Shown: positions 28,914 to 61,544 of the stretch, in pieces | Numbering within the stretch: the stretch's first letter is position 1 | Layout of the letters: every line of letters starts with the position of its first letter | IMG/VR virus record: IMGVR_UViG_3300038805_000372 | From: an uncultured virus (IMG/VR IMGVR_UViG_3300038805_000372) | Taxonomy: Duplodnaviria > Heunggongvirae > Uroviricota > Caudoviricetes | Strand: one strand, 5' to 3' | DNA length: 64,000 nucleotides | Notes under the pieces: generated by a model | Told to the model about the DNA's origin: nothing | The model's database searches: none | Seen by the model: only the letters and a program-made list of their open reading frames with translations | Translations under genes and position numbers: made by a program

Positions 28914-31900
28914 ATGGCAATAGAAAATTTAGATGATATTCTGATTACTGATGCAGAGAAAGAAAGCGTAAGAAAAAATTCGCCTTCTACTTTACCTCTT
29001 AATCCTACTGCTCAAGGTTGGTCTGCCCAAAAAATTAGAGAAAAATTATACCGCGCGATTTGTTCAGAAACCGGTGGTTTGTCAGATAATATTTTAGATA
29101 TATTGGACACAAAATTATTAAACATAAAAGAGATTTTTGCTGATTTAGATTTGGCAAAAGCAAGTCAATCACAATTAGATAGTTTATTTGATGATTTAGT
29201 TGCTGGAACTATTACTGTTCTAAAAGCCGAGCGCGATAATGAAGGAAATATAATTAAATCTAATTATGGTTCGAGCATTACATTTGATTATGAAGAATCA
29301 ACTCGTGTTTTGACATTAAAACTTTTTGCAAAAGATGGCTCACAATTAGGTAGTGACCTTACAATAACTTTGCCTAACGCAACACAATCTGCGTCAGGTT
29401 TAATGTCAAAAGATGATAAAACCAATTTGAATACATTACTTGGATTGTTAGGTGTTATTGGTGGAGATGCTGATAGCACAGTTAATAAGATTCGCGAAGT
29501 TCTTGACATTTTTCATAATTATCCCGAAGGAGATAAATTGCTTGATGTTCTTGCAACCAAAGCGACAAAAGAAGAACTCGCGGTTGCTGGTTTTCCTCAC
29601 GGTTGGACAAGAGAATTATTGACACCCACCGCCTTAACTAATGGGCAAACCATTTCAAAGGAAACATTAGAAGCATACGACATTATTACTTTAATTGCGA
29701 TTAACACTGCAACGAGCGAAATTGATACTGATACTATCGACACTGGCGTTGGACTTGTTGACGCTTATAAATATATCTTTTTCGATAACGCAAGTGTGTT
29801 TTTAACAATAGGTTCGACCTGCACATTTACCGATAACATTGGGGGTTATCAATTAAAGATTATCGGTCAAAAATATGAAGCCCAAGATGCCGAAAATGTC
29901 AAATATGATAAGACCGTTAAAAATCTATTAGAAAGCGATGATGTTCAAGGTGCGATTGATGAGTTAGCCGATGAAGTTTTAGCACCAGCATTTGTCGAAG
30001 TCGAACACCTTGCTTTACAAAGTGAAATCACTGCCACTAATGATATTGAAATCAAAGATGATAGTGGCGAGTTAGTTAAAATTACGGGTAATACACCGAC
30101 TAATTTAGTTATCAATAGCGACCTACTTATTGATAGTGATAGCAATGGTGTTCCCGATGGGTTTGTATATAAAGATGCTACCGATATATCATTAACGAAT
30201 GGTATTGCGAAGTTCACTGCGACTGCCAATTTCGGGCGTATATTAAGAAATGATTTAGATATAGACATTGGCGAAACCATTTACTATTTCGCACGCGTTA
30301 AAACAAGCAACGATAATACTCGATTTTATGGCGGTAATTCCCATACTTCAGTTCCAAATACTAATAGTTTTGAGTTTATATCCGCTGTAAGAACTCCGCT
30401 TATTTCTACTAACATACAACTAATTGGCGTTTATGATAATTCTTTAAGCAATTTTACTCCTATTGAAGTCGATTACATGGGTGCTTACAATGTCAGCGAT
30501 ATGATTAGACAAGGTGTTAAAAATGATGATGGCATCCCCTTTGCCAATTTAACCAATGAAGAAATCAAAGAACAATTAGATATTTGGCACGAAGTAGGTT
30601 ATCCTACTCATATCAATAAACTAATTAGCAAGAGTGATAACTTATTCAATGGAAAGTTTAATACGCTTACAAGTTTAGAAAGTGAAAATCTCGTTTCCAA
30701 TAGCGATTTACTAGTTGATGATAATAATGATGGTGTTCCCGATGGGTTTTATTATAATAATGCTACCGATATATCATTAACGAATGGTATTGCAAAGTTC
30801 ACTGCAACTGCACAATATGGTTATTTGAATTACGCATATACTTTCACTGCCAACGATTTAATTTACTTTTATGCGAACTTGAAAAGTGATAGTAATTTAG
30901 TTGGTATATTAGGTGCTAATAATGATGCTCAATGGACATTTCATAGTGGAAGTGGAAATTACGAGTTTATTTCTAATATTAAGACCGCCACACCTTACAA
31001 CAATATTCGTTTGAGTGATAGGCGTTCAAGTGGTTGGACTCCTATCGAAGTCGATTACATTGGTGCGATTAACATTACCGATTTAGTATCTCGTGGCATA
31101 TTGCCACAAGGTTTAACTACCGCACAATATAAAGAGATATTAGATAACGCTATGTATAATAATGTTCCTTTAAGAGAAAGTGATTTCATTAGTGTTGAAC
31201 CGAGTGTTGCCTATCGCTTAATCAAAGCAAGTGAAAATAGTGCTATACATAAGGTTATCGAATATACTACCGATAATCAAGTCGTTAAAGTCAATAGTGT
31301 TGATTATAGTGGTAATGTCAAGATTTCTTCGCCTATCACAATGAACACACTTACACGCAAGGTAAAACTGATTAGCGATTTAATGGACAGACCATCTCAA
31401 CTATTAACCAATCCTAATTTTGATAATGGAACTGCGAATTGGCTTACTATAAATCCAAGTGCGGTATCTTTATCAGTTTCTTCAAATGTTTTATATTTTA
31501 CTGCAATTCAACGATATGGAGCAGTTTATGAGCCATTCACACCAACGATTGGAGATATGTATTATTTTAGTGCATATCTAAAAGCCGATAGTAATCTTGT
31601 GGGTTTATATTGCTATTATTCTACCCCGTCTACACTCATTAAACATTCTGGTAGTGGTAATTTTGAGTTTTTATCTACAATAGCAACCGCTACGGATAAT
31701 ACCAATGATACTCGTTTTAGAATTGTATGCGATTTTAGAACAAGTGGGTGGACTGAATCACAAGTAAAATCGCCAAACCTTATCAACATTACCGATTTTA
31801 TCAAGAAGGGTGTTGCCGATGATAATGGCACATTGTTCTCTCGTTTAACTAATGATGAGATTAAAGACCAAATGGATATATGGGTGCAAAATGGTTTCCC

Positions 31901-34367
31901 CGATAGTGTTATCAATGCTCTATACCCCGATGGTGCTGATACTGCCATATCACTTAAATATAATGATGGCGATGCGATTTACTATCCACAAGTCATTGAT
32001 GAATTACCACTTGATATTACTTTAAGAAGTGGCGAGTATTGGCAAGATGGTTATATCGTTAAAGCCAATGGTAATGCCGAAGCAAGTCCGTTAGGTAAAG
32101 TATTTAGTGCGTGGAATTATGGGCAAATTGAAGTAATTTACGATAGTGGTGTTCCTGCCGATTTCAAGGTTAAATATGCTCAAAACACATCGGCACAAGT
32201 ATCAACTCATAGCGAATACTTAAAAGAAGCCAGAGAGCGTTTAGATACATTACGCAAAAATCAAAAGCAGTTAATTAAAAAGTTGGGCATTGATGTCGAT
32301 AACGATGTTTATGATAGTTTTGTTGGTATTACAAGCGAAAAGTTTGAGTATTATCAATTAGAGGGCATTAAGTCTGGCAACATATTAAAAGTCGAAGGTC
32401 GTGGACAGTCGGTTGCTAACCTTTTAGTCAATACGATTGCTTCAAGTATTACGGGTTTTGGTTTAACAATTACCTATGATGACACGACAGGTATGTTTAC
32501 GGTCAATGGCACAACTACAAGTGCTGGTAATATCATACTCAAAACGGGTATGAACTTTGGTTTGCCCGTTGGCACGACTACACAACTTATGAGATACTTC
32601 GATAGTGGCACGATTGACCTTAATGGCTCGTATGTTGGTTATCTCATTAGTGGCACAAGCGTATCAAATCGTATCAATGAAAATAGTGAGAGTTTATATG
32701 ACCCATATATCAATGGCGTTGGTGAATTAAAGCCCGATGGTGCTAACCCGAATGTCGTTGGAACAAGCGGTCAATCGCTCGTATTCCAAGTTTATAAAGA
32801 TGGCATGGTCTTTACTAATTTTAAGTTTAAGGTTGCACTATATGAAGGAACTAAACTGCTTCCGTTTGCGATGCCCGAAGCAACCAATAATGCCGATGTC
32901 GATGTCTATAATCGCACCGCCAACATACTCGATATGGGAACAAGCGATATTGCCTATACCGCAGTTAGTGGCATTACAATCGGTTATAACGCATTAGCCC
33001 AAGAGTTTGTCATTAGTGGCACAGCAACTGCCAATAACACGATTACCTTAAAAGCAAGTATATTAGATGTTGTTAGTGGCGATAGAGTGTCAATTAAGCG
33101 ATTATTCCAAAGTGGCGATATTACTGCGGTCAGCACATTACCTACCATTGAATTATTTGATGGCACAAGTGTTGTCCTTGCGAATAGCATTTATAAAATG
33201 ACTGCACCAGAGGGCGAAACACCGACACCCGATGTTAGTTTTAATACTGGCACGGTATCAAGTGATGGCACACTCACATTGAGATTACAATTCAAAGACG
33301 ATGATGTGTTCGATAATTACCGCTTCCGTTTGATGATACACGATAAGTCCACCGATATTGGTTATGTTGCTTATAATCGCACATTGGTTGGTAGTTTAAC
33401 TGCCGAAGCAAATGAAACTGATAGTTTCGAGTTTAGTGCCATTGATTTTGGTGTATTAGAGTTTATACCAAAGACCGACAAATTAAATGTTGTGTTTGGC
33501 GATACGATTACTGATACCGATAATAGTGTCCTTGAATATAATGCGGGTATTCAATCGGCAAATAGAAAATTAAGTGTTCTTGAAAGTCGCATTACCGCCC
33601 TTGACAATCCATTTAGAGATAAAGTCATAGCGATATGGGGAGATAGTCGAGAAAGCAACAACCCAACAAGCGACCCGAGTGGTGTGGGCGACCAAAAAGA
33701 TACTTCATATCCCGCCTTACTTGCTAAAAAACTCGGAGCAACCGTTCTAAACTTTGGTTTGAGTGGTGGTGCTTGGGCGGAAAATACCGTTCAGCAAGAC
33801 TCTGCTTCTGCTATTGTTAATCGTGTGCTAACGGAAGATACAAGTGCGAGTGCTGATGTCATTATCATTAGTTCAATGAATGACTTTAAGTTAGCGACAC
33901 CACTTGGTAGTTCGGCAACTACGAATAAGTCCGCAACTACTTTCTATGGTGCGATGCGTTTAACCTATGATAGACTTGCAACAAAATACCCAGCCAAAAA
34001 GATATGGTTAGTCTTACCGCAAAAAAGATACGATGAAAGCGTCAATTATGGTGGTGGCGATTATTATGCTTATCGTAAAGCACAAATAGATGTCGCAAGG
34101 GAATATGGCATTCCAACGATTGACCTATATAATAACTTCCCAAACACAAAACCGACATTCTACGCAACTAATATGCTAAACGACACACACTTCTCGGCGA
34201 TAGGCAATGAACTTGTTGCGGAAATTATCGCGCGCTCATTATTAGGTAATGGCAATAGCGGAAATGTTGATACTTTACCAGCACTACCAACTGCAAACGG
34301 CACATACACTTTGAAACTAACGGTATTAGATGGTGTCAATACATTTAGTTGGATATTAGATAGTTAA
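28914..34367 (+). CDS. Tail fibre/receptor-binding protein with repeated CBM-like modules and C-terminal SGNH hydrolase
   Basis: GDS, G, N(D) and DTH SGNH blocks; three internal repeats; ATQSASGLMS motif. Confidence 0.75.
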   Translation: MAIENLDDILITDAEKESVRKNSPSTLPLNPTAQGWSAQKIREKLYRAICSETGGLSDNILDILDTKLLNIKEIFADLDLAKASQSQLDSLFDDLVAGTITVLKAERDNEGNIIKSNYGSSITFDYEESTRVLTLKLFAKDGSQLGSDLTITLPNATQSASGLMSKDDKTNLNTLLGLLGVIGGDADSTVNKIREVLDIFHNYPEGDKLLDVLATKATKEELAVAGFPHGWTRELLTPTALTNGQTISKETLEAYDIITLIAINTATSEIDTDTIDTGVGLVDAYKYIFFDNASVFLTIGSTCTFTDNIGGYQLKIIGQKYEAQDAENVKYDKTVKNLLESDDVQGAIDELADEVLAPAFVEVEHLALQSEITATNDIEIKDDSGELVKITGNTPTNLVINSDLLIDSDSNGVPDGFVYKDATDISLTNGIAKFTATANFGRILRNDLDIDIGETIYYFARVKTSNDNTRFYGGNSHTSVPNTNSFEFISAVRTPLISTNIQLIGVYDNSLSNFTPIEVDYMGAYNVSDMIRQGVKNDDGIPFANLTNEEIKEQLDIWHEVGYPTHINKLISKSDNLFNGKFNTLTSLESENLVSNSDLLVDDNNDGVPDGFYYNNATDISLTNGIAKFTATAQYGYLNYAYTFTANDLIYFYANLKSDSNLVGILGANNDAQWTFHSGSGNYEFISNIKTATPYNNIRLSDRRSSGWTPIEVDYIGAINITDLVSRGILPQGLTTAQYKEILDNAMYNNVPLRESDFISVEPSVAYRLIKASENSAIHKVIEYTTDNQVVKVNSVDYSGNVKISSPITMNTLTRKVKLISDLMDRPSQLLTNPNFDNGTANWLTINPSAVSLSVSSNVLYFTAIQRYGAVYEPFTPTIGDMYYFSAYLKADSNLVGLYCYYSTPSTLIKHSGSGNFEFLSTIATATDNTNDTRFRIVCDFRTSGWTESQVKSPNLINITDFIKKGVADDNGTLFSRLTNDEIKDQMDIWVQNGFPDSVINALYPDGADTAISLKYNDGDAIYYPQVIDELPLDITLRSGEYWQDGYIVKANGNAEASPLGKVFSAWNYGQIEVIYDSGVPADFKVKYAQNTSAQVSTHSEYLKEARERLDTLRKNQKQLIKKLGIDVDNDVYDSFVGITSEKFEYYQLEGIKSGNILKVEGRGQSVANLLVNTIASSITGFGLTITYDDTTGMFTVNGTTTSAGNIILKTGMNFGLPVGTTTQLMRYFDSGTIDLNGSYVGYLISGTSVSNRINENSESLYDPYINGVGELKPDGANPNVVGTSGQSLVFQVYKDGMVFTNFKFKVALYEGTKLLPFAMPEATNNADVDVYNRTANILDMGTSDIAYTAVSGITIGYNALAQEFVISGTATANNTITLKASILDVVSGDRVSIKRLFQSGDITAVSTLPTIELFDGTSVVLANSIYKMTAPEGETPTPDVSFNTGTVSSDGTLTLRLQFKDDDVFDNYRFRLMIHDKSTDIGYVAYNRTLVGSLTAEANETDSFEFSAIDFGVLEFIPKTDKLNVVFGDTITDTDNSVLEYNAGIQSANRKLSVLESRITALDNPFRDKVIAIWGDSRESNNPTSDPSGVGDQKDTSYPALLAKKLGATVLNFGLSGGAWAENTVQQDSASAIVNRVLTEDTSASADVIIISSMNDFKLATPLGSSATTNKSATTFYGAMRLTYDRLATKYPAKKIWLVLPQKRYDESVNYGGGDYYAYRKAQIDVAREYGIPTIDLYNNFPNTKPTFYATNMLNDTHFSAIGNELVAEIIARSLLGNGNSGNVDTLPALPTANGTYTLKLTVLDGVNTFSWILDS
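32655..34361 (+). repeat. ~1.7 kb inverted repeat shared with 62276-64000
   Basis: Near-identical tail-fibre C-terminal coding sequence on opposite strands. Confidence 0.95.
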
Positions 34368-34379: not shown

Positions 34380-35003
34380 ATGAATCCTGAATTACAAGAA
34401 TTTCTTTATAACACATTGGCACAACTGGTGTCAGGCGTTCCTATTGGCACTATCTTGTCGCTGATTGTTTACTATGCATTAAATAAGGTAAAATTAAAGA
34501 CAGCGGAGTTTCCAGATAGGGCTAAAGCGTTAGAAAAGCAAGTTAAAGAATTTGCAAATGATGTTGTTGTTGCTTCTTCAAAACTAAAAGACGAAGTTGT
34601 CTCGATGGTAAATGAAGAACTGAATAAATTTAGTAAAAAAGCCGACGAATATCAAAAAATAGTAGAAAATTATAGAGTCCAGTTAGAAGAAGCCAATAAA
34701 CAAAATAAAGTGCTTATTGCTCAATATGAAATAACGATGGATGTATTAAAGACTTATGTATGCGAAAACAAAAATGCAGTAATTAGTGGTATGGCTAAAA
34801 CTGTTGCTGATAAATTAACAAATTATAAAGAACACGCATATATGGCTCAAGAAATAATTAATCAATCACCAGAAATAAAAGAAAAGATAATTTTTCTTAT
34901 TGAGCATTATCCAGACGCATTATTGGCAAAATTAGTGGAAATTCCAACAGAAGCATTGGAAGAAATTGTAAAGCAATATGAAGAAGAAAAATCACAAGGT
35001 TAG
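34380..35003 (+). CDS. Membrane-anchored coiled-coil protein (membrane cassette gene 1)
   Basis: N-terminal hydrophobic segment followed by a coiled coil. Confidence 0.6.
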   Translation: MNPELQEFLYNTLAQLVSGVPIGTILSLIVYYALNKVKLKTAEFPDRAKALEKQVKEFANDVVVASSKLKDEVVSMVNEELNKFSKKADEYQKIVENYRVQLEEANKQNKVLIAQYEITMDVLKTYVCENKNAVISGMAKTVADKLTNYKEHAYMAQEIINQSPEIKEKIIFLIEHYPDALLAKLVEIPTEALEEIVKQYEEEKSQG

Positions 35004-35481
35004 AGCCTATGTATCCAGAGCGCTTGGTTGGATTACTTCTTGTTTAACAACGACAGCAGGCGTTCTTCTATATACATTTGTTCCTGAAATAAACGGCGCA
35101 GATGATTTTGCTAACGCTTTTGAAGAATTTAAGTTATTTGAAGAAGGAATGAAACTTAATATGGGAGTTGCATTGCCGATTATTGCTGGTCTTATCGTCT
35201 TTCTTTTCGTGGTATTAAAAAAGAACAAAGACTTTTTCAAAGATAAATCTTCTATCGGATTAATGATTGCTATCGCTTTTATGTATTTAGCATATTCTCT
35301 TATAGGTATATTTATGAGCGCTTGCATTGGTGCTTTGCCTGGCGTGTTGGCTCAAGAATTTGGTTTTGAACCTCATTATCGAAGAGAGATAAAACTTGCT
35401 GAAATAGATAATGAATTAAAGTTAGAAGAAGTAAAAGAAGCAGTTAGAGAAGAAGTTAGAGAAAGGCGGAGAAGAAGGTAA
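34978..35481 (+). CDS. Multi-pass membrane protein (membrane cassette gene 2)
   Basis: 3-4 hydrophobic segments and a charged C-terminus. Confidence 0.6.
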   Translation: MKKKNHKVRAYVSRALGWITSCLTTTAGVLLYTFVPEINGADDFANAFEEFKLFEEGMKLNMGVALPIIAGLIVFLFVVLKKNKDFFKDKSSIGLMIAIAFMYLAYSLIGIFMSACIGALPGVLAQEFGFEPHYRREIKLAEIDNELKLEEVKEAVREEVRERRRRR

Positions 35482-36407
35482 TGGAAAACAAAGTCACAAC
35501 ACAATTTGTTAAAACTAAACACTATATGAATGATTGGTTTGGAATAATTTTAGGATTTTTAATTGCGTTTGCTACAACCTTGATGTCTATTATTGATTTC
35601 ACAAGTTTATCGGGTGGCAGTCCGTTCAAATCACTTACTTTAACGCAATATATATTTTTGGCGATAAGCATTGTTGTAAAAGGTTTTGCTAATATGTATA
35701 TTTTTCGTTCTTTTATTAAAAATGGTATAGAAAAAGGAAAACGAGAGCAAGACTATGAAGACCATCTTTATTATCAAGACGAACAAATAACCAAATGCCT
35801 TCCATATCGTGCGGAAATTGATATAAAATGCGAAGAAGATAATTATAAAGAAAGGCGCATAGTCTATTCAAATTATTGTAATCATAACCGTATAGTTTTT
35901 GAAGATTTATTTAACGAAGACTTAACTGTTAAAATGGACTATGTTCCTAAAAATAAACAAGAAAAAAAGGCTATCAAAAACTTGTATAAAAATTGTTATA
36001 TTAATGAAATATCCACTGCTTTACTTTTTGACTCTGCTGTTGGCGGTTGGCAAAAGAATAGTAAAACATTGCTTGAAAAAGAATATATATCCAAAAATTC
36101 TTCGACAACTATGGGTATGCTTTTCGGCGCTTTAACTTCAATATTGTCTGTTGCACCTTTTTATTTTTCAGTAAGCGGTATTGTTATGGCGATTGTTAAT
36201 TTTGGAATAGTGATTGGTCTTGCTTGGTATAAGTATATGAACGCCATTACTTATGTTAAAGATGAACTCGGCGGGGAAATTAAGCGTCGCGGTTTGAAAT
36301 TGGAAACTTTTTATATAGAAATTAAAAAAGACATCGTGAAAAAAGAGCAAAAAAATGATATTATATTAAAAGAAGAACCAAAAGAGGTGAGTGTAAATGG
36401 CATCTAA
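35481..36407 (+). CDS. 2TM-loop-2TM membrane protein (membrane cassette gene 3)
   Basis: Two N-terminal and two C-terminal hydrophobic helices flanking a ~150-aa soluble loop. Confidence 0.65.
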   Translation: MENKVTTQFVKTKHYMNDWFGIILGFLIAFATTLMSIIDFTSLSGGSPFKSLTLTQYIFLAISIVVKGFANMYIFRSFIKNGIEKGKREQDYEDHLYYQDEQITKCLPYRAEIDIKCEEDNYKERRIVYSNYCNHNRIVFEDLFNEDLTVKMDYVPKNKQEKKAIKNLYKNCYINEISTALLFDSAVGGWQKNSKTLLEKEYISKNSSTTMGMLFGALTSILSVAPFYFSVSGIVMAIVNFGIVIGLAWYKYMNAITYVKDELGGEIKRRGLKLETFYIEIKKDIVKKEQKNDIILKEEPKEVSVNGI

Positions 36408-37743
36408 AAGCAATAAAGATTTAGTCAATATACCTTCACTCGTTAAAAGTTCTGTGCAAATAAAAACGCCATTTATAACCCCGAAATATAGCGGTTTTGG
36501 TTTTTCTGCTGGCAACGGTTCAAACAACGGAAGTGATGAAGGCGTTGGCTCTCAAGAACCTCAAACAGTAGCCGAACAAATTGCTGGCAGTTCAAACCCT
36601 GAACTTGCTTTTCAACAATATTTATATCAAACTGGTTTAGAAAATATTTTTACTCAATATCAAAAAAATATTGCTAATTTAGATTCAGCGAGACAAAAAG
36701 ATATTGCCGATGCCTATTTTATTAGAGAAATGTCTAAAAAATATCTTGGTGAATACGCTTCTAATGTAGGGATTGGAGATGTTAGCGGAAATCTTATAGA
36801 CATATATTCTTCTTATGCCGAAAATATCTCTGATATAAATGCTAACTATAACTCTCTTAAAGCAAACTATGAAGCAAAAATGTTAGAAGAGTCTCAAAAG
36901 ACCGCTGAACAACTTTTAGGAACAGAAGTATCTTTGCAATTATCAGAATACGCTGATACAATTTTAGAAGCGCAAAAAACAATAATGAATAATATTCAAA
37001 CTGGCGATTGGGGAGATTTTGATAATTATGAAGACTATATTAATTCTCTTGACCTACCAGATAAACAAAAACAAGAACTTATTGATTGGGCAGAGCAAGA
37101 AAATACTTTATTTGAAACTACATCATTTACTCAAATAAAAGGTGTAGGAGTAAATCAGCAAGACCTCGATAGATTTGGTTTAACTTCTCAACCATATATC
37201 GACTTAACTTATTACACAAATGCAGATATTATGAGTGAATATGCTTATTCAATGAATGGTAATTTATATGGAGTAGCAACCGAATCTACCGAAATACCAA
37301 CAAGTTATTTAGAAGAAATTTCTTTTAACTATCGTAAAGACGGCAATGGTTTTATAACATATAAAGGTGATACTTATGTATATTTAGATGACGGAACTTT
37401 TCATAAGATGATTGCGGTTGAAACCGAAGGCGCTAAAATACCAACTGAAAACGGCGAATTTTTATCTATGGAAAATTACAATAAAAAAGACTATATGATA
37501 AATGGAACAAAATACAAAGCAAAAGACGGTTATAATCCTACAAAATTTCAAAAAAAGTATCCAGATATTTATGAATCACTCGGTATAACAGAATCAAAAG
37601 ACTCATACGGTAGAACTATTTGGACAAATTCAAAAGATGCAAATTTCATAGGAACAAAAATTGTATTTTACAATGGTAGATATTATTCTGTAAATTATGT
37701 AAATGAATATAATGTATATATTTCAGAATTAGAAAAGGCATAA
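36397..37743 (+). CDS. Putative internal virion/ejection protein
   Basis: Q/N-rich helical N-terminal half; lies before the giant virion gene. Confidence 0.5.
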   Translation: MASKSNKDLVNIPSLVKSSVQIKTPFITPKYSGFGFSAGNGSNNGSDEGVGSQEPQTVAEQIAGSSNPELAFQQYLYQTGLENIFTQYQKNIANLDSARQKDIADAYFIREMSKKYLGEYASNVGIGDVSGNLIDIYSSYAENISDINANYNSLKANYEAKMLEESQKTAEQLLGTEVSLQLSEYADTILEAQKTIMNNIQTGDWGDFDNYEDYINSLDLPDKQKQELIDWAEQENTLFETTSFTQIKGVGVNQQDLDRFGLTSQPYIDLTYYTNADIMSEYAYSMNGNLYGVATESTEIPTSYLEEISFNYRKDGNGFITYKGDTYVYLDDGTFHKMIAVETEGAKIPTENGEFLSMENYNKKDYMINGTKYKAKDGYNPTKFQKKYPDIYESLGITESKDSYGRTIWTNSKDANFIGTKIVFYNGRYYSVNYVNEYNVYISELEKA

Positions 37744-37747: not shown

Positions 37748-40700
37748 ATGGCGCAAGTTCAAGGAACAAAAGAACAAATTCTTGTTTCGGCTTATAATAG
37801 TGGTGTAGAATACATTCAAAATTATCAAAAAAATAATGCCGATTTTTATAATGAATTAGTTAATAGATTTGAAAACGAAAAACTCGCTATGCAAATTTTA
37901 GGATTTTCTCCTGTTGGATGGCTTTATTATTTAGGTAAAGGATTATATAACGGAGTAGTTGGTTTTGCAGAAGGTGCTGTTGTAACTTTAACTAATTTTA
38001 TCAATAACGCAGTCCAGGTTTTCAAATCAGATGAACAATTTGGTTCTGAAGCGTGGAGTGATGAACTTGCTGGAGATATAAACTATTTATTTGTTTCTGG
38101 TCTTGTTGATGCAGTTCAAGGTCTTGAAAACGCTACTTTGAATTTTTTAGCCAACGCTGGCGGTATGTTTGTCGCTTCAACAGAGTGGTCTGAAAACTTA
38201 AAAAAACATTCTAACAAAGCGTTTTATGATTTTAAGGTAAATTTATTAAAACCAAGTAGTAAAAATGATTTAATGAGTAGTGAATTTTTACCGTCGGATA
38301 GTTCTGATAGACCAGAAAATCATACTTTGCCATTTGCTTCAGATATAATAAGCGGTGTAGATGATATTGCTTCCAAGATGTATTTGAAAGACGATATTTT
38401 TGCTCCTTATATGCAAGACAATCAGGTAATGTCAAAATCACATGAATTAATGTCTGGTGTTTTAGAAAGCGTTGGTAGAATGATACCGTCTATTGCATTG
38501 ACTTATTTAAGTGGTGGAAGTGCTATTGGAATACTCGCTTCTTCTTCTTATTTTTATGCCACTACATACGGTCAATCTTTTAATGAAGCAATCGAAAAAG
38601 GCGTTTCTATTTATGACGCAAATCAATACGCCACACAAATCGCTATGGTAGAAACTATGACGGAACAAATTGGTGGCTTTCAGTTCGGTAGTGGTATTGG
38701 TAGCAATGTCGCCGAAAGTGTTCTTAACGAAGGTATGGAAGAATTTATCGCTGAAATGGCTACTTCTCAAGTTACATACGACGAAGAAGGAAAACCTATT
38801 TATGAAAGCCAAGAGGATTTAATAGAAAGAGTTCTTATGGCTACTTTTTCAGGAGCAATATCTGGCGGGCTTATGACTGGCGGGCAAATATTCGGAACAA
38901 AAGTTTACAGAGGAGAAGTTGGTAAAACGGCGGATAATCTTGCAAAAAGCGTATCTCTTTCCATAAAACAAAACGGACTTGATAAAGTTCAATCGGCAGT
39001 AACTAATGCTCTTGACGACGCTATCGAATCATTAAATAAAACTGTTAATAATGAACAAAGCAGAAAAAAATCAGAAAAAATAATTTCTGAAACAGAGGCA
39101 CAAAAATATATTGAATATAGCGAAAAAGAAAAAAAGTTTGTTTTAACTGATTTTGGCGAACAAATAAAAAAAGATATTCGCGCTCATCAAGGAAAAACCG
39201 CTATGACTGACAACCACGCCGTTAGAGTAAATCCTACAATAAAAATTAAAGAAGAAATTTCTGTTGAAAGGATTGAAAATGGTAAAAAAATAATTGTTAA
39301 AGAAAAAATAAATATATTAGAAAAAAATAATCATAAATATAAAAAAAATAAAAAGTCTGTTGATGATATTATTAATATATCTGAAAAAATTGGCGTTAAT
39401 GTTGTTTTATATGATGGTGATGTAAGCAATGCTCAAGGTTTTTATGTTGATGGCGTTTCTTATGTAAATATCAATGCTTTAGGAAAAGATGGTCTTGGAC
39501 TTCAAAAACAAATATACGGACACGAATTATTACACCAACTTTTCGCGCGTTTTAGACAAAATGTTTTAACCGAAAAAGCAGATAAGAAACTTTTGAAATT
39601 ATCAAAAGACATTTTAGAGTCTTTGAAAACTAATAAAGAGTTTGTTAAAGAGGTTGGTCTAAAAACAGCGGACATAAAAGATTTAGCAACTTTGAGTGAA
39701 GAACACATGGCTTATTTTATTGAAAAATATGTCAGTATGGATTTAGTTATGGAACGCCTTGCTTATCGCAGACCTGACCTAATGAAAAATATAGTCGATG
39801 ATATGACAAGCATACGGGCTAAAAGAGAAATGACCGTTATTGAAAAAGAATATATGGAACTTCTTGCTGAAATTAATTTACACACTATGGATAGCATATC
39901 AGCAACTTTGGCTTTATCTAATTTAACGCCAGAAAACGCAAAGGCGAGCAAGATAGTTCAACGAAAAATGTTCAACAAGACAAAAAGCGAATATGATTAT
40001 CTCGTTAACTATTTGATTAAGGTTGATAAAAACGGAGAATATATTGTTCCTGACGAACTAAAAGAAGATTTCAAAGGCAAAAGCGATAAAGATGTAAAAT
40101 TTCATCCAGACTTCAAAGCGTTTTTGGTTGCGTTTAAGAACAGAGATGAAAAAGCGATAATAGATAATTTTCTAAACACTAAAAATATTGAAGATGAAAC
40201 ATTACAAAAAAGATTAACTGCGTATAAAGCGGTTCAAATTTTTGAGTATATGGAAAGTAATAAATTTTATAGACACAATGAAGTTATGGAAGCGTTCAAG
40301 GCTGATTTTGTTGCTGAAATTAATAGTCGCATTGAAGCGAAAAAAGCAACTCTAAAAGATTTTCCTGTTCACGATGGAAATTTAATAAAAGTAGATGCCG
40401 AAACTTTTCACGAAGTATTTGCTCTAAACTATTTGAAAATGTGGAGAGAAAATTATGTATCGCTTTATCCTATTAGCACTTATAAGAATGTAAAATATCT
40501 TTACTTACGAGACGATTTAATGGCTGGTTTTGCTGTTCAAGGCGAAGAAACAAATGATAATGCTGATTTTGGAAGATACGAATTAGCGTCTCTTTTTAGA
40601 AGCGAGGGAGAGGCTGGTTGGTTAAAAGGCAAAGTTGATTTTATTGTTAAAGACTTACAAGCAAGACAATTAGCCTCTGTTTCTGAAAGACACGCTCGGG

Positions 40701-43700
40701 GTTATAAAAAAATTTTTGAAGGTTCTTTACAAATAATTAGAAACTCAATGATAAAAAATGAAGAAAAGCCAATGCGTTTTAAGAATTTTGGTTACAGTAT
40801 GCTTTATATGTCTAATGATTGGACGGCATTATATAGCAATTACATTATTACTGAACTTGCTTTAAGAAAAGATAACCCTACATATAAGATTACTCATCAA
40901 ACTGGACTTCGTAGAAGAATTACAACTCCTATAAAATATTCAAAAGCAAATGTTTTAGTTACTGATAGCGTTGGTAATGAACTTACACAAGAGCAACAAG
41001 ATTATTTCGAAGATAGTGTGGTGCGTGATGAAAATGGTAATCTCAAAGTTGTATATCACGGGACAAAAGCCGACTTTAACACTTTTCTCCACGAACACAT
41101 AAGCGATTCAACCGGCAGTATGGACTTTGGTTATGGCTTTTATTTTACCGATAGTGAAGAAGTTGCAAGCGGTTATGGCACTACCAAAAGTGTCTATTTA
41201 GATATTAAGAAGCCACTATCTTATGACACAAAAACAATAACAAAACCCGACTTATCTAAACTACTTAAAACATTGGACGCCGATGGCGAAATGGGTATTT
41301 TAAGCAATTTTGATGATGTATCATATATCGGTTATGCAAAGTTGTTAAGTAAGGCAACAAATATGCTTTATGACAACAACACTAACGATGTTGATATAAT
41401 AAGCGAAATGATTAACATTCACGGTGGTTATAGGGCTTCCAAAGAGTTTTATAATATTTTGAAAAACACGCTCGGATATGACGGAATTATCACGAAATAC
41501 CACACGAAGAAAGATGATGTCTATGTTGTCTTTAATTCTAATCAAATCAAGTCCATAGATAATAAAACACCGACCGATAGCGATGACATTAGATTTAGTC
41601 TCCAGGATTACACAATTCGTTCTCAATTTGATTATTTTCAAGATACATTATTAAAAGACAAAAACGGAAGCATTGTTCCTATGTTACTGTTAAGCGACAT
41701 TGTAAAATCAAATCCAACATATTACGCTAAATCATTAGGAGTTGTTAAAAGCGGATATTTCTTATTTTCAACTGATGTTGATGTTAAAAAATATAAAAAA
41801 AATACCAAATTAGTTTTTGCAAATATCACAAAAGCATTAAACGCGGATGTAAAAATTACCAGCGCAATGTATGAAAATATAATTAAAAACGCCGTAAAAG
41901 AAGTTAAAACATTAGACCAAGACATAATTGATAGATACAGATTAAAAATAAATTCAGGTGAAATAAATAATTTTTCTCAAATTGTCGATATGATGTCGTT
42001 TTCTTTGTCCGGATATGAAGATTTATATAACTTTAAGCGCGCTATTTTTGAAGCCACAGGTTATGATGGCTTTATTTCTTATGATGAAAATGGAAATATA
42101 GTCAATGCTGTTGCTTGGTTCGATGAGCAAATAAAAAGTGTTGATAATCTTGCTCTTGATGATAATCAAAAAGACATTATTCTTTTTTCGAAGTATTCAG
42201 ATGATATTGTTGACGATTTGGAAGAAGTATCTTTGGGCGACATAAGAGTAGAAATTGATATTGAAAAACTCTTAAAATATGGATGGTTAAAAACAGTTAC
42301 AGATAAATCTCTTTTAGAAAAAGGATATATGTTTCAAATTCCAAAAAGCAATTTTTATATTCACGAAAGACACTTAAAAATACCGTTTCCTTTTGAAAAA
42401 AATAATATAACTTACGATAGTCTTGGAAACGAAATAGTGTTGTCTCTAAAAAACTTGAAAAACAAGGAATACTTTTATTTGTCAATACCACAAGATTACA
42501 TTCACCCGACAACTAAAAAAATATATAAAAACGCTCGGTATCTTGCCAGCGGTATGAGTTATCATTGGTTATCAAAAATACCTATCGAAACAGGTAGCAT
42601 ATCTCAAAGTGTTGCTTTAGAAGATTTATCTAATCGTATTCCAGAGGCTTCGGCTTATTCAAGTGCAAAAACAGGACAATATTTGCCTGAAATATTTGTT
42701 GTTATGAAAAAAGATATTCTAAATAAAACGGAAACAATATCTGGCTCGATAGATTATTTTACAAAAGTAAGAAAAATTTATGGCGATAAAATTATGTTAT
42801 TTGATGATTTTGGGAAAGCAAATGGAGAACAATTTCGCGAAATGGTAAAAAAAGAAGCGTTCTCTGAAATTGAAAAAAATAACGGCGTAATCTCTGAAAA
42901 AATAGAACAAACTTATAATATATATGATGAAAACGACCCGCTTATAGTAGAAAAAATAAATAATGTAACAAATAATTATCTAAAAAAGCAAATGGTAAGC
43001 AAGATTGCAGATAATATTTATTCTTATAAAACATCATCATATACAATTCAATATAGAACATTATCTATTTTAAGAGACCTTGTGTTTTTTGGTAAAACAA
43101 ATCTAAATTTTGTGTCAGACGCAAATAGAACTTTTGATTTTATTAGTGAAATAGATAAATATGCAAAGATGTTATCTCTTATGGCAAACAAATATGAAAA
43201 TATCGAAATTATGGCACAAAAGATTTTTGAAGCAAAAGAAAAATCTACCGATGAATATAATATGAAAGAATATTTATTAAAACTTCCATATACTTATAAC
43301 GGAAATTTTGCTGAAGTTAGAGAATTAAAAACAAATATAAACTATTCAGATATTGCTACTGTCTATTATAAATATGGAAATAGGGATGCTTTTGCTATGG
43401 AACAAGAGTTATATGATTATGATAAAGAAGAAGTTATGGAAGATAATGACACATACGGAGAGATGCGCAAGTTTGACAATGCTGTAAATGATATTGAAAA
43501 AACTTTATCTGATATTGATGGAAAAGGAATAAGAATCGTCGAGTTTGACCATACAGAAGATATTCACAAAAAAATTATAGAAGATATAAATAATGGTAAT
43601 ATAGACCCAGAAACCATTTTATTTTCAAAACAAGATATATCTGAAAACATATATGAAAGTGGACTTGTAGATAATAACAGTAATGATTTTATTGACAATG

Positions 43701-46700
43701 CTGTATTATTTTCAAGAAAATTTGCTAAAGTAAAAAGCGGAGACACTAAATCTGCTCTTAATAATTTACACTCACAAAAAATGGAAACTTTTGATAGAAA
43801 AACATACGAAAATATAGAGCGCGTTTACGCTGATTTCTTATTAACTTATAAAGAAGATAAAAAAACAACTGGCGGGAAAGTAATAGCAAAAATCGTAGAA
43901 AATATCGAAAAAAGAATTAGAAATAATAATAACAGAGAACAAATATTCAATCACTTATATAATACCGTTGCCAAAACACTTGTTCTGCAATTAAATATAC
44001 TAAATTCAGACACCACAACTAAAACGACAGACGCACAACGCGAGATTTTGGTATCTTCTATCAATTCTACAATAGCACAAACTATGTCATATCTTGATAC
44101 TGTTTTTACAAACAATGATGTAAATAAATTAGACCCGAGTAATACACAAGGAAACCAATATACTCGTCTTATTTATCATTATTTACGAGCGGTTTTAGAT
44201 AACAACAATCAAACTCACGAAGGCTCTGAAAAAATTACTTCTTTATATGAAGCGCTATTTGATTTAGATATTACAAGTAAAAATTCATTAGAAGGACTAT
44301 ACGATGCACTTAAAGAATTTGAAAAAGCGACTAATGTTGACCAAGTTAGTTCTTGTGTGGTTGCTACTGGTGGAGAATATGCTCATACAATAAAAAATGC
44401 CGAAAGACAAGCGGATATATGGATAGATTCTGCGTTAGATATAGTCGGAAAATATATGACTGTATATGATAAACTTGGCAAGCGTTCTACAAAGCGTAGT
44501 GGTGGACTTATCGGTAAAAACTCATTTTTAGACGATTTAGGAATCGCTAACTGGATAGCAGACCCGTTTACATACGCTGAAATTGCTTCTTTATTTTTGC
44601 CAAATGCGCTTCCACAAGTTATTCAAAATAGATTATTTGAAGGAAGCAAAAAACAACTTAAAGTTCTTAACCATTTTTATACTTTTTTTGAAGAAGGCGG
44701 ATGGGCTAAACATAATCAAAAAAATATAAATAATTTAGAAAAAAAATATATCAAAATAAATAATTTATTAGATTATAATGGAAATCCAATGGATATATCG
44801 TTATCGCAAGTTATAACTCTTTACAATACTCTCAAAAGAGAATTAATCAGAAATAAAATGATAGATGAACAATTTATTAAAGGCGAAAAAACACACCACT
44901 TTGAAAATGGAAATAGAATTTTGGCTACCGAAAATGTTAATAATAAAATTGAACGCGAGGCAAAAGGAAGATACGGAAAAATAGTTGATAACATTGGTTT
45001 GCTTAATGATTTATCAGAAATACTTCATCAGCCAGAAAATTCATTCGCTATTGAATATAATAAAAAAATTATGTCATTTTTTGAGGCGATGTATCCTTAT
45101 GTAAATGCTACATTCAAAGACATTAATGGTTTAGAACTTCCAAATGACGCTGTTGTTATTAAAAAGGCGTTTGATTCTATTAGCGCAGAGGAAAAATCAG
45201 AGTTATTAAAAGGTTTTCCAACGGTTGAAGATTTTTCGCAAATTTATATCCCTTATAGAAATGCTCGTGGTTCTTATAGTGGGAAAAATACTTTCGATGT
45301 AAATAATATTCTTGATTTAGGTGTTTTTGATGGTCTTGCACAAGCATTAACAAATAGTTCTTCTGAACTTGTAATTGATAGTATTAACAATCTTATGCCA
45401 GAATATTCAAAAGAAGTCGCTAATTACTACGGTCTATATCGTATCGCGAGAGACTTAAATGAAATGTTTGGAACGCAAGAACAAGTTCCTGGCACAATTC
45501 AAGAAACAAATCTTGCTCAAAAAATGGTCTTATTAAGTCCAAATATTGTAAAATATTATGAGGAATTATTAAAGGATATAGCCGGATATTCTACGCAAAA
45601 AGATACGACATCACAAAAATTTGATAAATTTATGGCTAAATTACGCAAAAATTATTTTAGAGCGTCATTAGCGATTAACGCAAAAGTCATAGCAACTCAA
45701 TTTGCATCAATGATTACTTGTGGAACAATATTTGGAAAAGGTAGTAACCCTTTAACTAACGCTGGTTTTATGGCTCGGTTTATGAAAAATCTTTTTACCG
45801 CTGGCTCAAAAACAAGAGCAAAATATCTTGTTGAAAATAGTGAAATATATAAAAATAGAGCAAGATTATCAACATACGAAGTAAGCGAAGCAACAGAAAA
45901 AATTTGGACTAAAAATCCAGTAGAAAATGCTGTCGAGTTTTTGATGCGTGGTATTACGCTAACAGACAATATGATTAACCGCGCTTTGTTTGTTACTCTC
46001 GTAGAAGATGGATATAGCGAACAAGAAGCAATGGAGAAAGTAGAACTCGCAATTTCTCGGTATCAATCATCGGGGAACGCTATTGACCGCGCCGAATTGT
46101 TGAGGACAGAAAATCAAATTCTGCGACTCTTTACAAAGTTCTTGGGCGAACCTATGAAAATGCTTACGAATTTTTATGGAATATCAAAAAAATTAAATAT
46201 AATCAATAAATACGAAAAAAATAAAAATGAAATAATTAAACATTTTGATAATAAAAAAATTGAGGAAGATAAAAAATTAATTGTTAAAAAAGAAGAAATG
46301 CGTTTACGCTATGAATATGAAGCGTCACCAGCGTTCCAAGAGTTATCAGAAAAAGATAAACGAAAATATACTGCCGAAACGCAAAAGAAGCAAAGTGCTT
46401 ATAACGCTTTAGAATACGAAGTTGATAGAGCAAAACGGATGTATGACATCGTTAAATCAAATGTTCAAGAGGTTATAAATAGCAAGGCGGAAACAAAAGA
46501 AAAATTAGGGCGTTTAGTTAGCGCGTTTGCTGGCTCTCTATTGTGGCAAGTGTTTTTAGGTGTTGCGTTTAAGATGCTTCGTGGTGGCGCAAAAGATAAA
46601 CCAGAAGATGAAGAAATGTGGGCATATTTAGGTAAGATGTTTGGTTTCCAATTAGCCACTGAACTTGTCGGTTATTTGCCATTTGTGCGTGATGTATATA

Positions 46701-47473: not shown

Positions 47474-47620
47474 TTACTCCTTTTTAATTATCACTTCTAA
47501 TTTTTGGCACTCTTCATAGAGTTCCTTTTGGTATCGAATCAAATCGGTTTTGCTTGGATTATCGCCCAACTTTTCAGCAATGTAGCGAATATTGAACAAC
47601 GCTATTTCTAATTTATTCAT
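47474..47620 (-). CDS. Small hypothetical protein, 48 aa, not in the ORF track
   Basis: MNKLEIALFNIRYIAEKLG...; its stop abuts the giant gene's stop. Confidence 0.45.
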   Translation of the reverse strand: MNKLEIALFNIRYIAEKLGDNPSKTDLIRYQKELYEECQKLEVIIKKE

Positions 47621-47714
47621 ATACTAAATGCTATACAAAGTGATATCGCAATCGAGATTACAAGGATAGCGACAAGAATACCGCATAAAGCATATATCAA
47701 TTTATCGGTTAGTT

Positions 47715-47930
47715 TCATTTACTTTTCCTCTCTTTAAGTAATTTATATTTTGCTAATCTTTTTCTGGTTCTTTCAGTATAGGAAGTGAAATAATATTGAG
47801 CAGTTAAGTTGTTATTGGCTATATGTTGTAAAAACTCATCAAAGTTTTTATACCATCCTATTACACACCGATTCCACACTCTCCATCTTCTACAATGAGG
47901 TAACCACTCAACAATCAATGTTCTTTTCAT
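47715..47930 (-). CDS. Hypothetical protein
   Basis: ORF in the leftward small-gene array. Confidence 0.5.
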   Translation of the reverse strand: MKRTLIVEWLPHCRRWRVWNRCVIGWYKNFDEFLQHIANNNLTAQYYFTSYTERTRKRLAKYKLLKERKSK

Positions 47931-49721: not shown

Positions 49722-49925
49722 TTAATATCCACCACTCATCGAAACTAATAACACAATGATACCTGTAACCGTATATATGATAAAATAAGTTAAAAGTCCA
49801 TATCCAGCACCGCGCCTAATGTTTCTACCACCGATGGCAAAGGCGATGATTAAACCGATAAGCCCTAATAAGAAACCTAACGCAAAGCCACCACCGAAAC
49901 TGCTATTGTCAATATCGTTATTCAT
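49722..49925 (-). CDS. Small two-TM membrane protein (start MNNDID)
   Basis: GGGFALGFLLGLIGLIIA plus a second hydrophobic helix; AGGAGG RBS. Confidence 0.6.
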   Translation of the reverse strand: MNNDIDNSSFGGGFALGFLLGLIGLIIAFAIGGRNIRRGAGYGLLTYFIIYTVTGIIVLLVSMSGGY

Positions 49926-49926
49926 A

Positions 49927-50172
49927 TTACTTACCTCCTTTCTTTTCACTTTTTATATAACTTGTAATTATCGCTGATGATGTAATTAGAAACGCAATGG
50001 TGCTTATAACAACCCAATTCAGCATACAAACCTCGATGTCTAATTCAATACCGTCAATAAGATAAGTTAGTGCAAAAGTTAGTGCGATAACCATAAAGAA
50101 GAATGTATATGTTGTTAAAAACGATATGACCGTTAGACATATACAATTAAATATTTTTTCTAATGTTTTCAT
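49927..50172 (-). CDS. Small two-TM membrane protein (start MKTLEK)
   Basis: Two hydrophobic helices; start overlaps the TVP38 gene stop. Confidence 0.55.
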   Translation of the reverse strand: MKTLEKIFNCICLTVISFLTTYTFFFMVIALTFALTYLIDGIELDIEVCMLNWVVISTIAFLITSSAIITSYIKSEKKGGK

Positions 50173-50906
50173 AATTTTCCTTTCTTTTCTATTCTCTTGC
50201 TGACTTTTGAGCCAACAATGAAAATCACAATTAACCAAAACGCACACGAAGTTATGAACACAAACCAATCTAATAATGTGAATGTAGCATAATCGAAAAT
50301 GTTTGTGCCTAATACACAAATTGTCAATATGCCTAAACCCCTAAAAATAACTACATAGATTAAATGTCGCCAAAAGTTCATTTTTTGTAATCCAGCGACA
50401 AAGCACAATGCGTCATCGGGAAAAGCGGTTAATAGATACATAATAGGCAAGAACACTTTGGCTTTGCTATCAAGCAGTTTTTGGGCTTTTTCAATATCTT
50501 CTTTGCCTACTAACTTGATTGCGATTGCTTGACCACCATATCGACCGATTAAAAACATCATTTGACTTGAAATAGTAGTGCCAATTAGCAAGATGATAAA
50601 TGTGGTTAATAGACCGCCAATCGTGCCATCGTTAAATAAAATGTTGCCTAATATCGCAAAGGTCATAGCGGTTGCTGGAACGAAACATAATAGCGTTGTG
50701 ATAACGATTTGAAACAATAGAAATATTGCCCAAGACCACACGCCAAACGAGCCAATAACATTTTGTAATTCAGCAATATCGGTAAACCCCAACGCTTCCA
50801 TAGCGAAAAATAGTCCAATCGTTATTAAAGCGATGATTGCTATTGCGATAACAATGCCCAATACCGCCCTTTTATGCTCTTTAATGTAAGTTAATAGTTT
50901 GTTCAC
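50169..50906 (-). CDS. TVP38/TMEM64 (DedA-superfamily, VTT domain) membrane protein
   Basis: FVPA...G.LF...GTTISS...FLIGRYGG...FPDDALCFVAGL...M.FW...R pattern. Confidence 0.85.
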   Translation of the reverse strand: MNKLLTYIKEHKRAVLGIVIAIAIIALITIGLFFAMEALGFTDIAELQNVIGSFGVWSWAIFLLFQIVITTLLCFVPATAMTFAILGNILFNDGTIGGLLTTFIILLIGTTISSQMMFLIGRYGGQAIAIKLVGKEDIEKAQKLLDSKAKVFLPIMYLLTAFPDDALCFVAGLQKMNFWRHLIYVVIFRGLGILTICVLGTNIFDYATFTLLDWFVFITSCAFWLIVIFIVGSKVSKRIEKKGKL

Positions 50907-51026
50907 TTTATTTGCTCCTTTATTTTATCTACATACTCATTGATAACTTGTGCATGGTCTTTAATGTGAATCGCCAATTAGTGAATGGCTTTAAGTATTT
51001 CCACAACCACGATATAAAGCGTTTCA
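50853..51026 (+). repeat. Direct repeat, copy 2 (copy 1 at 1-174); junction between phages A and B
   Basis: Matches 1-174; the sequences diverge immediately afterwards. Confidence 0.95.
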
Positions 51027-54549: not shown

Positions 54550-54550
54550 A

Positions 54551-56480: not shown

Positions 56481-56489
56481 ATTTTCTCC

Positions 56490-60054: not shown

Positions 60055-60082
60055 TAAAAAAGACCTAACAAGTAGGTCAATT
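60055..60082 (-). terminator. Terminator of the phage B late operon
   Basis: GACCTA/TAGGTC stem plus U-tract on the minus strand. Confidence 0.7.
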
Positions 60083-61088: not shown

Positions 61089-61544
61089 TTATTTCTTGCC
61101 TTTTGGCTTTTTAGCGAACGCTACGCGCATTGCTTGTTCGATTTGCGTTTGTTCGCGCTCGGCAACCCAAGCTGGTAATGGATTAACCACGATGCCGATG
61201 GCGACGCTTGGAATCACGATATATAGTATGCGTTGTATTTTCATTACATTTTCAGCAATTACGCTTGTCATAAATAGAATTAAGACCAATGGCACGATGA
61301 CATACATTATGCCAACGATAATTTGCTTTACTAACCCTTGTTCTAATGCCTTAACAATGCGCGACAAGGCATAAAAAATTGGTATGGACACGATAGCGAT
61401 TAAAATTAACGACCAACCGCCCATCATAAACCGTCCCTCGACATTAAATAAATCATAGTAATAATTTATAGCAAGAAAAGGCACTATGCAGGTAAAAAAC
61501 ATAAATGCGATTAACTTAACCCAAAACTTTGTTCTATCGCTCAT
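61089..61544 (-). CDS. Four-TM membrane protein (cassette gene 2 of phage B)
   Basis: Four hydrophobic helices and a basic tail. Confidence 0.65.
   Translation of the reverse strand: MSDRTKFWVKLIAFMFFTCIVPFLAINYYYDLFNVEGRFMMGGWSLILIAIVSIPIFYALSRIVKALEQGLVKQIIVGIMYVIVPLVLILFMTSVIAENVMKIQRILYIVIPSVAIGIVVNPLPAWVAEREQTQIEQAMRVAFAKKPKGKK

Follow-up and report, generated by a model that had tools for sequence, protein, structure and literature searches.

A conserved, unexplained three-gene membrane module after the tail fibre gene of uncultured phages without a recognisable lysin

Background

How does a tailed phage leave its host when its genome carries no recognisable lysin gene? This question is raised by a 64,000 nt stretch of DNA from an uncultured virus of the Caudoviricetes (IMG/VR record IMGVR_UViG_3300038805_000372; hereafter the window), in which a tail fibre gene is followed by three consecutive genes for membrane proteins (the trio; proteins 1, 2 and 3). 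Two joined records make up the window: positions 1-50852 belong to phage A and positions 50853-64000 to part of phage B, each phage having a trio (A1 to A3 and B1 to B3); phage A corresponds to one metagenome contig of 50,852 bases (locus L001, A3 match 100%). The initial annotation of the window had taken the trio as a substitute for the lysis genes, serving release or DNA entry in phages of wall-less bacteria. To our knowledge, the exit of tailed phages from wall-less cells is essentially unstudied, and the titles and abstract openings searched revealed no publication dealing with a cassette of this kind or with the lysis genes of phages that infect mollicutes.

The trio proved to be real, conserved and unexplained, and the observation underlying the initial annotation was confirmed, with its interpretation being partly supported. 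The trio appears to be a portable three-gene inner-membrane module travelling with the distal fibre (late) block in uncultured low-GC phages, and our preferred but tentative reading is that it forms a late, holin-type lysis module which permeabilises the membrane. The framing in terms of wall-less hosts was weakened, while the lysin-free framing survives as a question.

Results and discussion

Gene content and predicted topology of the trio

All six trio open reading frames (ORFs) have the positions, lengths and topologies first assigned to them (Table 1), and each set is located, as had been noted, directly after a tail fibre gene, which encodes a C-terminal GDSL/SGNH domain. Transmembrane (TM) helices were taken from Kyte-Doolittle scans, with the B1 helix being weaker and below the threshold used; protein 3 has two plus two helices flanking a loop of 135-177 residues in both phages. 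The genes of phage A are closely packed, with A1 preceded by a strong Shine-Dalgarno sequence (aaggagg) and overlapping A2, A2 abutting A3, A3 overlapping the next gene (A4), and 4 bases separating A4 from a giant gene. No terminator-like site was found between positions 33800 and 38200 of phage A.

Orientation was inferred by the positive-inside rule, counting K+R versus D+E per segment. Protein 1 is predicted to have its N-terminus outside and its tail inside, protein 2 to have both ends inside, and protein 3 to have its N-terminus, large loop and C-terminal helix inside, with only ~20 and ~5 residues outside. Almost nothing of the trio would therefore face the exterior, which argues against receptor masking or wall hydrolysis; the predicted topology is more in favour of a complex that forms lesions under control from the cytoplasm, or of a membrane docking site.

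Protein 2 has the form usual for holins, a small membrane protein with at least one TM helix and a charged, usually basic C-terminus, both in the window (A2, B2) and in two further genomes described below (G333 and G107), where its counterparts have four TM helices and charged tails. Database searches gave little further information: all Pfam matches of A1 were under the cut-off, A2 had only sub-threshold Pfam matches (MauE, 23.1 bits versus a cut-off of 27) and, in the ESM Atlas, scores of ≤0.78 without an informative family, neither A1 nor A2 matched a PHROG, and A3 reached 22.9 bits against DUF2207_C, below the curated cut-off of 33. A complex prediction for B3 with B1 and B2 scored 0.00 versus a mark of 0.32, with controls absent, and weighs neither way.

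Table 1. Trio genes and neighbouring features of the window, with the evidence for each
Feature	Position	Strand	Description	Evidence
A1	34380..35003	+	207 aa; acidic N-terminus, one TM (~12-34), ~170-aa K/E-rich helical tail, predicted cytoplasmic	Hydropathy
A2	34978..35481	+	167 aa; basic N-terminus, 2-4 TM, highly charged C-tail ending RERRRRR; holin-like form	Hydropathy
A3	35481..36407	+	308 aa; 2 TM, ~135-aa helical loop, 2 TM, long C-terminal helix; predicted member of unnamed phage fold family	Hydropathy, model, profile
B1	61556..62056	-	166 aa; acidic N-terminus, weak TM (~17-37), helical tail	Hydropathy
B2	61089..61544	-	151 aa; four TM, basic C-terminal tail ending KKPKGKK; holin-like form	Hydropathy
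B3	60098..61036	-	312 aa; architecture as A3	AlphaFold model, predicted local distance difference test (pLDDT) 81, predicted template modelling score (pTM) 0.71
Terminator-like hairpin and T-run	60062..60078	-	20 bases past the B3 stop; GACCTACTTGTTAGGTC then TTTTTTATTA	Pattern match only
Phage B tail fibre	62273..64000	-	C-terminal 575 aa; gene leaves the window	Family scan; fibre alignment to A
Phage A tail fibre	28914..34367	+	1817 aa; internal repeats, C-terminal GDSL/SGNH esterase domain	Pfam Lipase_GDSL_2 E 1.9e-11; PHROG 5240 'tail fiber' E 2.6e-23
A4	36397..37743	+	448 aa, soluble; start overlaps A3 stop	No Pfam, PHROG or PDB match
Polyvalent protein	37748..47473	+	3241 aa, ART-PolyVal domain; final gene of the phage A + strand operon	Pfam PF18760 E 5.9e-24; PHROG 21376
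Small membrane ORF	47617..47718	-	33 aa, nearly all one hydrophobic helix; could equally be a holin	Convergent gap after giant gene
Small membrane ORF	49722..49949	-	75 aa, 2 TM; alternative holin candidate outside the trio	Hydropathy
Small membrane ORF	49927..50319	-	Up to 130 aa, 3 TM, basic C-terminus; alternative holin candidate	No Pfam or PHROG match

Relationship of the two trios

The trios of phages A and B had been described as sharing little sequence identity, and BLASTP comparison found nothing significant between them (E 1.7, 2.5 and 0.42 for proteins 1, 2 and 3, respectively). A3 and B3 are probably remote homologues. For A3, 24 close homologues were found, all metagenomic and with 60-96% identity, while the 17 representatives of B3 had identities down to 21%; comparison of the two profiles with hhalign gave a probability of 67.8% (E ~5e-5, 69 colinear columns), and 68.8% (E 4.5e-5, 146 colinear columns) with a larger B3 alignment, dropping to 11.5% with very small alignments. 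The sequence GIEKGKREQDY was placed residue on residue on GLDVGMANPDY, the same motif pair that had been picked out in the initial annotation. A hidden Markov model (HMM) of the B3 family matched seven of eight A3-type proteins over the same colinear span, at only 2.7-18 bits.

Structural models point in the same direction. The B3 model is a helical bundle on a four-helix membrane base, and the A3 model, which is of low confidence (pLDDT 61) and poor in the membrane parts, has nearly equal helix boundaries (e.g. 199-223 and 231-287/295). Five uncharacterised phage proteins of the BFVD database (A0A345BNV1, A0A2Z4GU85, A0A8S5M2A9, A0A8S5S6F4 and A0A8S5M9I1) were retrieved by both models, at ranks 1-4 and 12 with B3 and ranks 1, 2, 3, 5 and 30 with A3. 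These proteins of 293-307 aa share their predicted fold with B3 (E 1.8e-6 to 6.5e-3 for four of the five, TM-score up to 0.64/0.68) and A3 (E 4.5e-4 to 0.5 for four of the five), and none has an assigned function. Judged by these models, A3 and B3 define an unnamed fold family of ~290-345 aa with a 135-190-aa loop, shared with uncharacterised phage proteins; the structural similarity between the trios that was looked for as a check on the initial annotation is present for protein 3 and favours it.

Nothing explanatory was found for protein 3 in PDB, Pfam or the named PHROGs, and no solved structure scored above noise; 18 members of the B3 family matched only PHROGs of unknown function (best E 0.0022), and scores for B3 in the ESM Atlas were ≤0.87, without an informative family. 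We rejected a role of A3/B3 as membrane-bound lysin in view of the predicted cytoplasmic location of the loop and the scarcity of invariant residues, N110 and G253 being the only two in the 18 B3-family sequences. Proteins 1 and 2 showed no significant A-B similarity in BLASTP and profile comparisons, with weak colinear N-terminal matches via the G333 protein (E 0.004 and 0.12); the E of 0.004 was also that of the weak match between B1 and its G333 counterpart.

Distribution of the trio in other genomes

A profile of the B3 family was searched against 399 genomes of the class and 401 genomes of the order of G001, a 1.3-Mb Tenericutes metagenome-assembled genome (MAG), and gave four matches at E ≤0.001 in each sample, including G001 both times, with one of the four being marginal in each sample. 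The trio is conserved as a unit well beyond the window. Phage B is ~95% identical at the nucleotide level to an IMG/VR record (G002; 38,377 bases, terminal repeats, rated 100% complete) which also contains the trio, and which has head and tail genes different from those of phage A: an HK97-type capsid, an SPP1 gp7-like protein, an HK97 gp10-like tail component and a portal of PHROG 533.

The genome G333 encodes a 293-aa relative of protein 3 (E 1.8e-19), preceded by four-helix (188 aa) and one-helix (166 aa) proteins. This trio lies at the very end of an integrated ~38-kb prophage on contig C2, opposite the serine recombinase at the other end and adjoining host genes (NadABC, glycerol kinase and SPFH). 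All three proteins of phage B have a homologue in G447 (B1, 29% identical, E 2e-12; B2, 30% identical, E 1e-19; B3, E 2e-95), encoded on the 37.7-kb contig C98 in a unit with small ORFs. A weaker relative in G107 (E 3.3e-5, 27.6 bits) belongs to a set of 167, 169 and 345 aa with one, four and four helices, located after collagen-like tail proteins and tail proteins bearing a carbohydrate-binding module, on a 77.8-kb phage-like contig (C13) with an SU10-type portal. Finally, G471 has a weak match (E 1.2e-5) within a set of membrane proteins of 178, 171 and 401 aa.

Nucleotide searches with both trio regions found no match in 50,697 phage records, and tblastn of the same records found none for ten proteins, namely seven members of the B3 family (B3 itself, P0031, P0036, P0038, P0040 and P0064 among them) and the third proteins of G333, G107 and G471. 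An A3-family profile had no match in the genome contigs or IMG/VR, and a P0058-group profile had none in IMG/VR.

Search for lysin genes

The initial annotation had seen no recognisable endolysin motif in any ORF of phage A. This held for the ORFs of at least 90 aa that were scanned, which matched no muralytic Pfam family (E ≤0.01) and no lysin PHROG (E ≤0.001), with smaller ORFs lying outside the scan. At E ≤0.01 or ≤0.001, no muralytic Pfam family or lysin PHROG was found in the scanned ORFs of G002 or in the whole ~38 kb G333 prophage plus flanks, and no muralytic Pfam family in 20 kb of the G447 contig or the last 23 kb of the G107 contig; these negative results relate to described folds and to ORFs above 60-90 aa. 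Whole-genome searches for Amidase_3, Amidase_2 and GH25 matched the chromosomes of G333, G447 and G471, and that of G107 for Amidase_2, with none of the matches lying on G447 C98, on G107 C13 or in the prophage interval of G333 C2. On G471 contig C26, a single Amidase_3 match is located 11 kb from the trio, beyond host-like genes. PDB searches by phmmer with seven proteins lacking a family match, including two mid-sized proteins of G333 and one of G107, returned nothing relevant. Hence the phage-encoded peptidoglycan hydrolase of a canonical holin-endolysin cassette was not found, nor was an endolysin gene beside the trio in phage A, G002 or the G333 prophage.

Hosts and cell wall

The sole host tie for phages A and B is a 1,538-base contig of G001 that is 94% identical to B3, and only this contig of G001 matches phage B DNA. 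G001 had no match to penicillin-binding protein (PBP) transpeptidase, FtsW/RodA, Amidase_2, Amidase_3 or GH25, and one match to Mur_ligase_M, a family which also matches archaeal controls. In the sample of its order, FtsW/RodA was found in 55/401 genomes and not in the other 346/401. Peptidoglycan markers were present in three of the five genomes with a non-marginal match, namely G333 (two PBP matches and FtsW), G447 (five PBP and FtsW) and G471 (three PBP and FtsW). The remaining two are G001 and G107, which is without PBP and FtsW, yet has 15 Amidase_2 matches, most of them to proteins 600-1100 aa long; this is odd for a putatively wall-less organism, and might mean that the enzymes have other bacteria as targets, or that the bin is mixed or incomplete.

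The only demonstrably integrated copy of the trio is thus in a marker-positive genome (G333). Since three of the genomes are marker-positive, including this one, the cassette is not specific to wall-less hosts, and the proposed tie to such hosts did not hold; the host of phages A and B could still be wall-less. The opposing prediction considered at the outset, that homologues would be found mainly in lysin-carrying phages of walled hosts, was borne out for the hosts, whereas no lysin was found in the phages.

G002 also carries genes for an ABC permease (BPD_transp_1, E 1.5e-14) and an NlpA/MetQ-type lipoprotein (E 1.5e-56) at L016:5651-7069, which look like auxiliary methionine-uptake genes. 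The best match of the MetQ-like lipoprotein among 400 genomes was 52% identical, and three of the five best-matching genomes contain PBPs, making it uninformative on the host; G001 had no match to this lipoprotein and no Cas1.

Possible functions of the trio

Our preference for the holin-type reading comes from the position of the trio, its portability between virion types, the mosaic way in which its sequence turns over, and a protein 2 that resembles holins in form. The trio of phage B follows the fibre gene and is itself followed by the terminator-like hairpin and then by early/recombination genes; in the G333 prophage, the trio likewise stands last. It occurs with podovirus-type modules in phage A and G107, and with modules of HK97-capsid/SPP1-gp7 type in G002 and G333, and this presence across virion types fits a lysis cassette better than a virion part. 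The last 575 aa of the A and B fibres are 94% identical, with nucleotide similarity extending up to the fibre stop codon and no further, and BLASTP could not align the trios that follow; such abrupt mosaic turnover is the usual behaviour of holin genes. The three genes were also inherited together, as B1, B2 and B3 each have their homologue in G447. Also in favour is that phage A, G002 and the G333 prophage yielded no muralytic domain at the thresholds applied.

Under the holin-type reading, the trio would act late in infection by permeabilising or disrupting the cytoplasmic membrane. The pore would be formed by protein 2, which has four helices, both termini inside and a charged C-terminal tail. 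Protein 1 (N-terminus outside, one helix and a cytoplasmic coiled coil) and protein 3 (four helices, a ~135-aa cytoplasmic helical bundle and a long C-terminal helix) would be its partners on the cytoplasmic side, timing the lesion or providing a scaffold for it. For hosts lacking peptidoglycan, rupturing the membrane would be enough to set the virions free; in the peptidoglycan-bearing hosts, completion of release would require host autolysins or a lysin that escaped recognition.

The nearest annotated analogue in position is the holin/endolysin set of Bacillus phage Page (Pagevirus, NC_022764.1), a distant relative with a portal 21% identical to that of phage A over 87% of its length. Page has holin/antiholin, holin, hypothetical protein and endolysin genes at the end of its late block, where phage B has the trio, and both sets precede an early block of SbcC-like, RecT, metallo-hydrolase and DnaD-like genes, in line with the suggestion that the trio takes the place of a lysis locus. 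Both also comprise several small membrane proteins in a row; the likeness is one of position, and the Page holins have 74 and 137 aa, versus 151-312 aa and large cytoplasmic domains for the trio proteins. Page furthermore has an L-alanyl-D-glutamate peptidase endolysin and a 'lytic tail fiber protein', neither of which was found in the trio phages. In the Bacillus prophage PBSX, the consecutive genes xhlA, xhlB and xlyA encode a membrane-associated coiled-coil protein and a multi-helix holin, which act together, and an amidase. The trio likewise consists of three consecutive genes, but unlike the PBSX amidase, its third product is a four-helix membrane protein without conserved catalytic-looking residues, and no Pfam match to XhlA or holin families was found for the trio.

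Several observations weigh against the holin-type reading. Proteins 1 and 3 are large and, by the positive-inside rule, nearly wholly cytoplasmic, which is unusual for holin partners, and the small membrane ORFs of phage A (Table 1) look at least as holin-like as the trio. The six trio proteins of the window matched no Pfam holin family (E ≤0.01) and no PHROG (E ≤0.001), the counterparts in G333, G107, G447 and G471 matched no Pfam holin family at E ≤0.001, and those of G333, the only set of the four scanned against PHROGs, matched none of these. In phage A the trio lies mid-operon, followed by the gene for the 448-aa protein and that for the 3241-aa polyvalent protein, with overlapping or abutting starts, and the order of fibre, 205, 166, 314 and 447 aa, and giant gene is kept in all three longer A-type contigs (L004, L005 and L009). 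In G447, a replication block of opposite orientation lies between the trio and the tail genes. As G333 and G447 have peptidoglycan genes, a holin without lysin would be insufficient in these hosts, and the lack of a lysin may merely reflect an undetected family, with several ORFs in these elements having no match at all.

A function in superinfection exclusion or host protection, in which the trio would act as a moron, residing in the membrane of an infected cell or lysogen and preventing the DNA of related phages from entering, seems rather unlikely to us. It would be in keeping with the location of the G333 trio at the prophage end beside host DNA, the proximity to the receptor-binding fibre, the fast sequence turnover, and the G447 trio standing apart from the tail genes in its unit of small ORFs. 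Against this, the near-identical fibre ends of phages A and B are followed by unrelated-looking trios, so that the trio is not matched to receptor specificity; there is also almost no predicted outward-facing mass, and no integrase or recombinase was seen in phage A and G002.

Alternatively, one of the unmatched ORFs may encode an endolysin of a family not yet described, with these phages using an ordinary holin-endolysin system and the trio having no part in exit. The hosts G333 and G447, with PBPs, FtsW and amidases, lead one to expect a lysin, and many ORFs near the trios are without match in searches which used sequence profiles only. We consider this unlikely, as phage lysins are in general experience readily recognised with Pfam and PHROGs, three independent complete elements lacked any lysin match, and the PDB searches with unmatched ORFs of G333 and G107 added none.

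A more far-reaching reading is that the trio constitutes a self-sufficient, lysin-independent three-protein release machine, whose cytoplasmic helical domains would rupture or remodel the membrane. Such a machine would have originated in phages of an Acholeplasma-like, mostly peptidoglycan-free order, and have been kept in phages of the walled minority with the help of host autolysins, a scenario we regard as decidedly improbable.

The other half of the initial proposal, DNA entry, would make the trio virion-carried ejection proteins that form a conduit through the membrane. The internal core proteins of podoviruses, such as T7 gp14/15/16 and P22 gp7/20/16, are encoded near tail genes and end up in the host envelope, and polyvalent proteins are thought to be packaged and injected. 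The phage A trio adjoins such a giant, probably injected protein, with co-orientation and start/stop coupling to it and the 448-aa gene in phage A and the three longer A-type contigs. The trio is, however, not restricted to the podovirus virion module and co-inherited with it, as it also occurs in siphovirus-like genomes (G002, G333) which encode long tail proteins themselves and lack a polyvalent protein (for G002, PF18760 gave no match). Moreover, the likely giant gene of G107 is not beside the trio, multi-pass membrane proteins would be hard to package in a soluble capsid interior, and no sequence or fold similarity to the podovirus proteins was found, making this explanation highly doubtful. 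We give the lowest probability to the trio anchoring or organising late assembly, DNA packaging, replication or a similar cytoplasmic process of the phage at the membrane, its helical domains recruiting phage or host partners, even with all soluble mass predicted to be cytoplasmic and protein 3 modelled as a helical bundle on a four-helix membrane base.

Other features of the window

Phage A consists of a 30-kb late block on the + strand and an early block on the - strand. The late block contains, in order, genes for terminase, portal (weak P22-type match), a capsid candidate, an SU10-adaptor-like protein (weak match), a 1301-aa protein, the 1817-aa fibre, the trio, the 448-aa protein and the 3241-aa protein, while the early block includes SNF2, VapE, a PD-(D/E)XK nuclease, Sak, an AAA protein and a methylase. 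The fibre has repeats of ~190 aa (DNA repeats D3 and D4 at 30102-31066), and its C-terminal SGNH esterase is possibly receptor-modifying, with a substrate that could hint at the host surface. In the 3241-aa protein the ART-PolyVal domain covers residues 1094-1276, a HELLH metalloprotease-like motif is visible in the translation, and a hydrophobic segment lies near residue 2923. A sparse stretch was also noted in G107 (L028 and L024:39-3077, at ~40.6-58 kb of C13), with three closed ORFs of at least 100 aa in 15 kb and a 1012-aa ORF opening the next stretch, and it may represent one giant gene upstream of the terminase.

The starts of the two records are homologous (50853-51049 versus 1-197, 93% identical over 197 bases), which would be in keeping with circular or permuted genomes having been cut at a common site. 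An ORF at 50169-50906 with a VTT/DedA-like match (Pfam E 1.8e-16) spans the junction at 50852/50853 and was discarded as an artefact. The methylases of the two phages differ, being of N6/N4 type in phage A (176-1618, - strand) and of C5 type in phage B (51320-52735, - strand), with conserved flanks (repeats D2, D7 and D9), and this looks like a cassette swap between related phages. The 266 bases around the ORF at 47617-47718 are 96% identical in G002, and a segment with a 164-aa ORF (48603-49097, - strand), which has a weak PARP catalytic-domain match under the cut-off (E 6e-4), is also shared with G002 at 89-96%. In the early region of phage A, a 40-nt motif containing a T-run of 17-18 bases occurs three times (10837-11200; D5, 88-100% identical, spaced by 212 and 112 bases), and further repeat pairs lie at 9461/10056 and 10570/10716; these repeats may be origin or regulatory sites.

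Conclusions

Three independent and apparently complete phage genomes without a recognisable lysin, one of them in a peptidoglycan-making host, are unusual. If the trio is not an exit device, these genomes harbour a cryptic lysin family that awaits discovery. If it is, the trio would represent a lysis module of a new type, and would serve to mark phages that infect Acholeplasma-like bacteria. In either case, it defines an unnamed family which is conserved as a unit.

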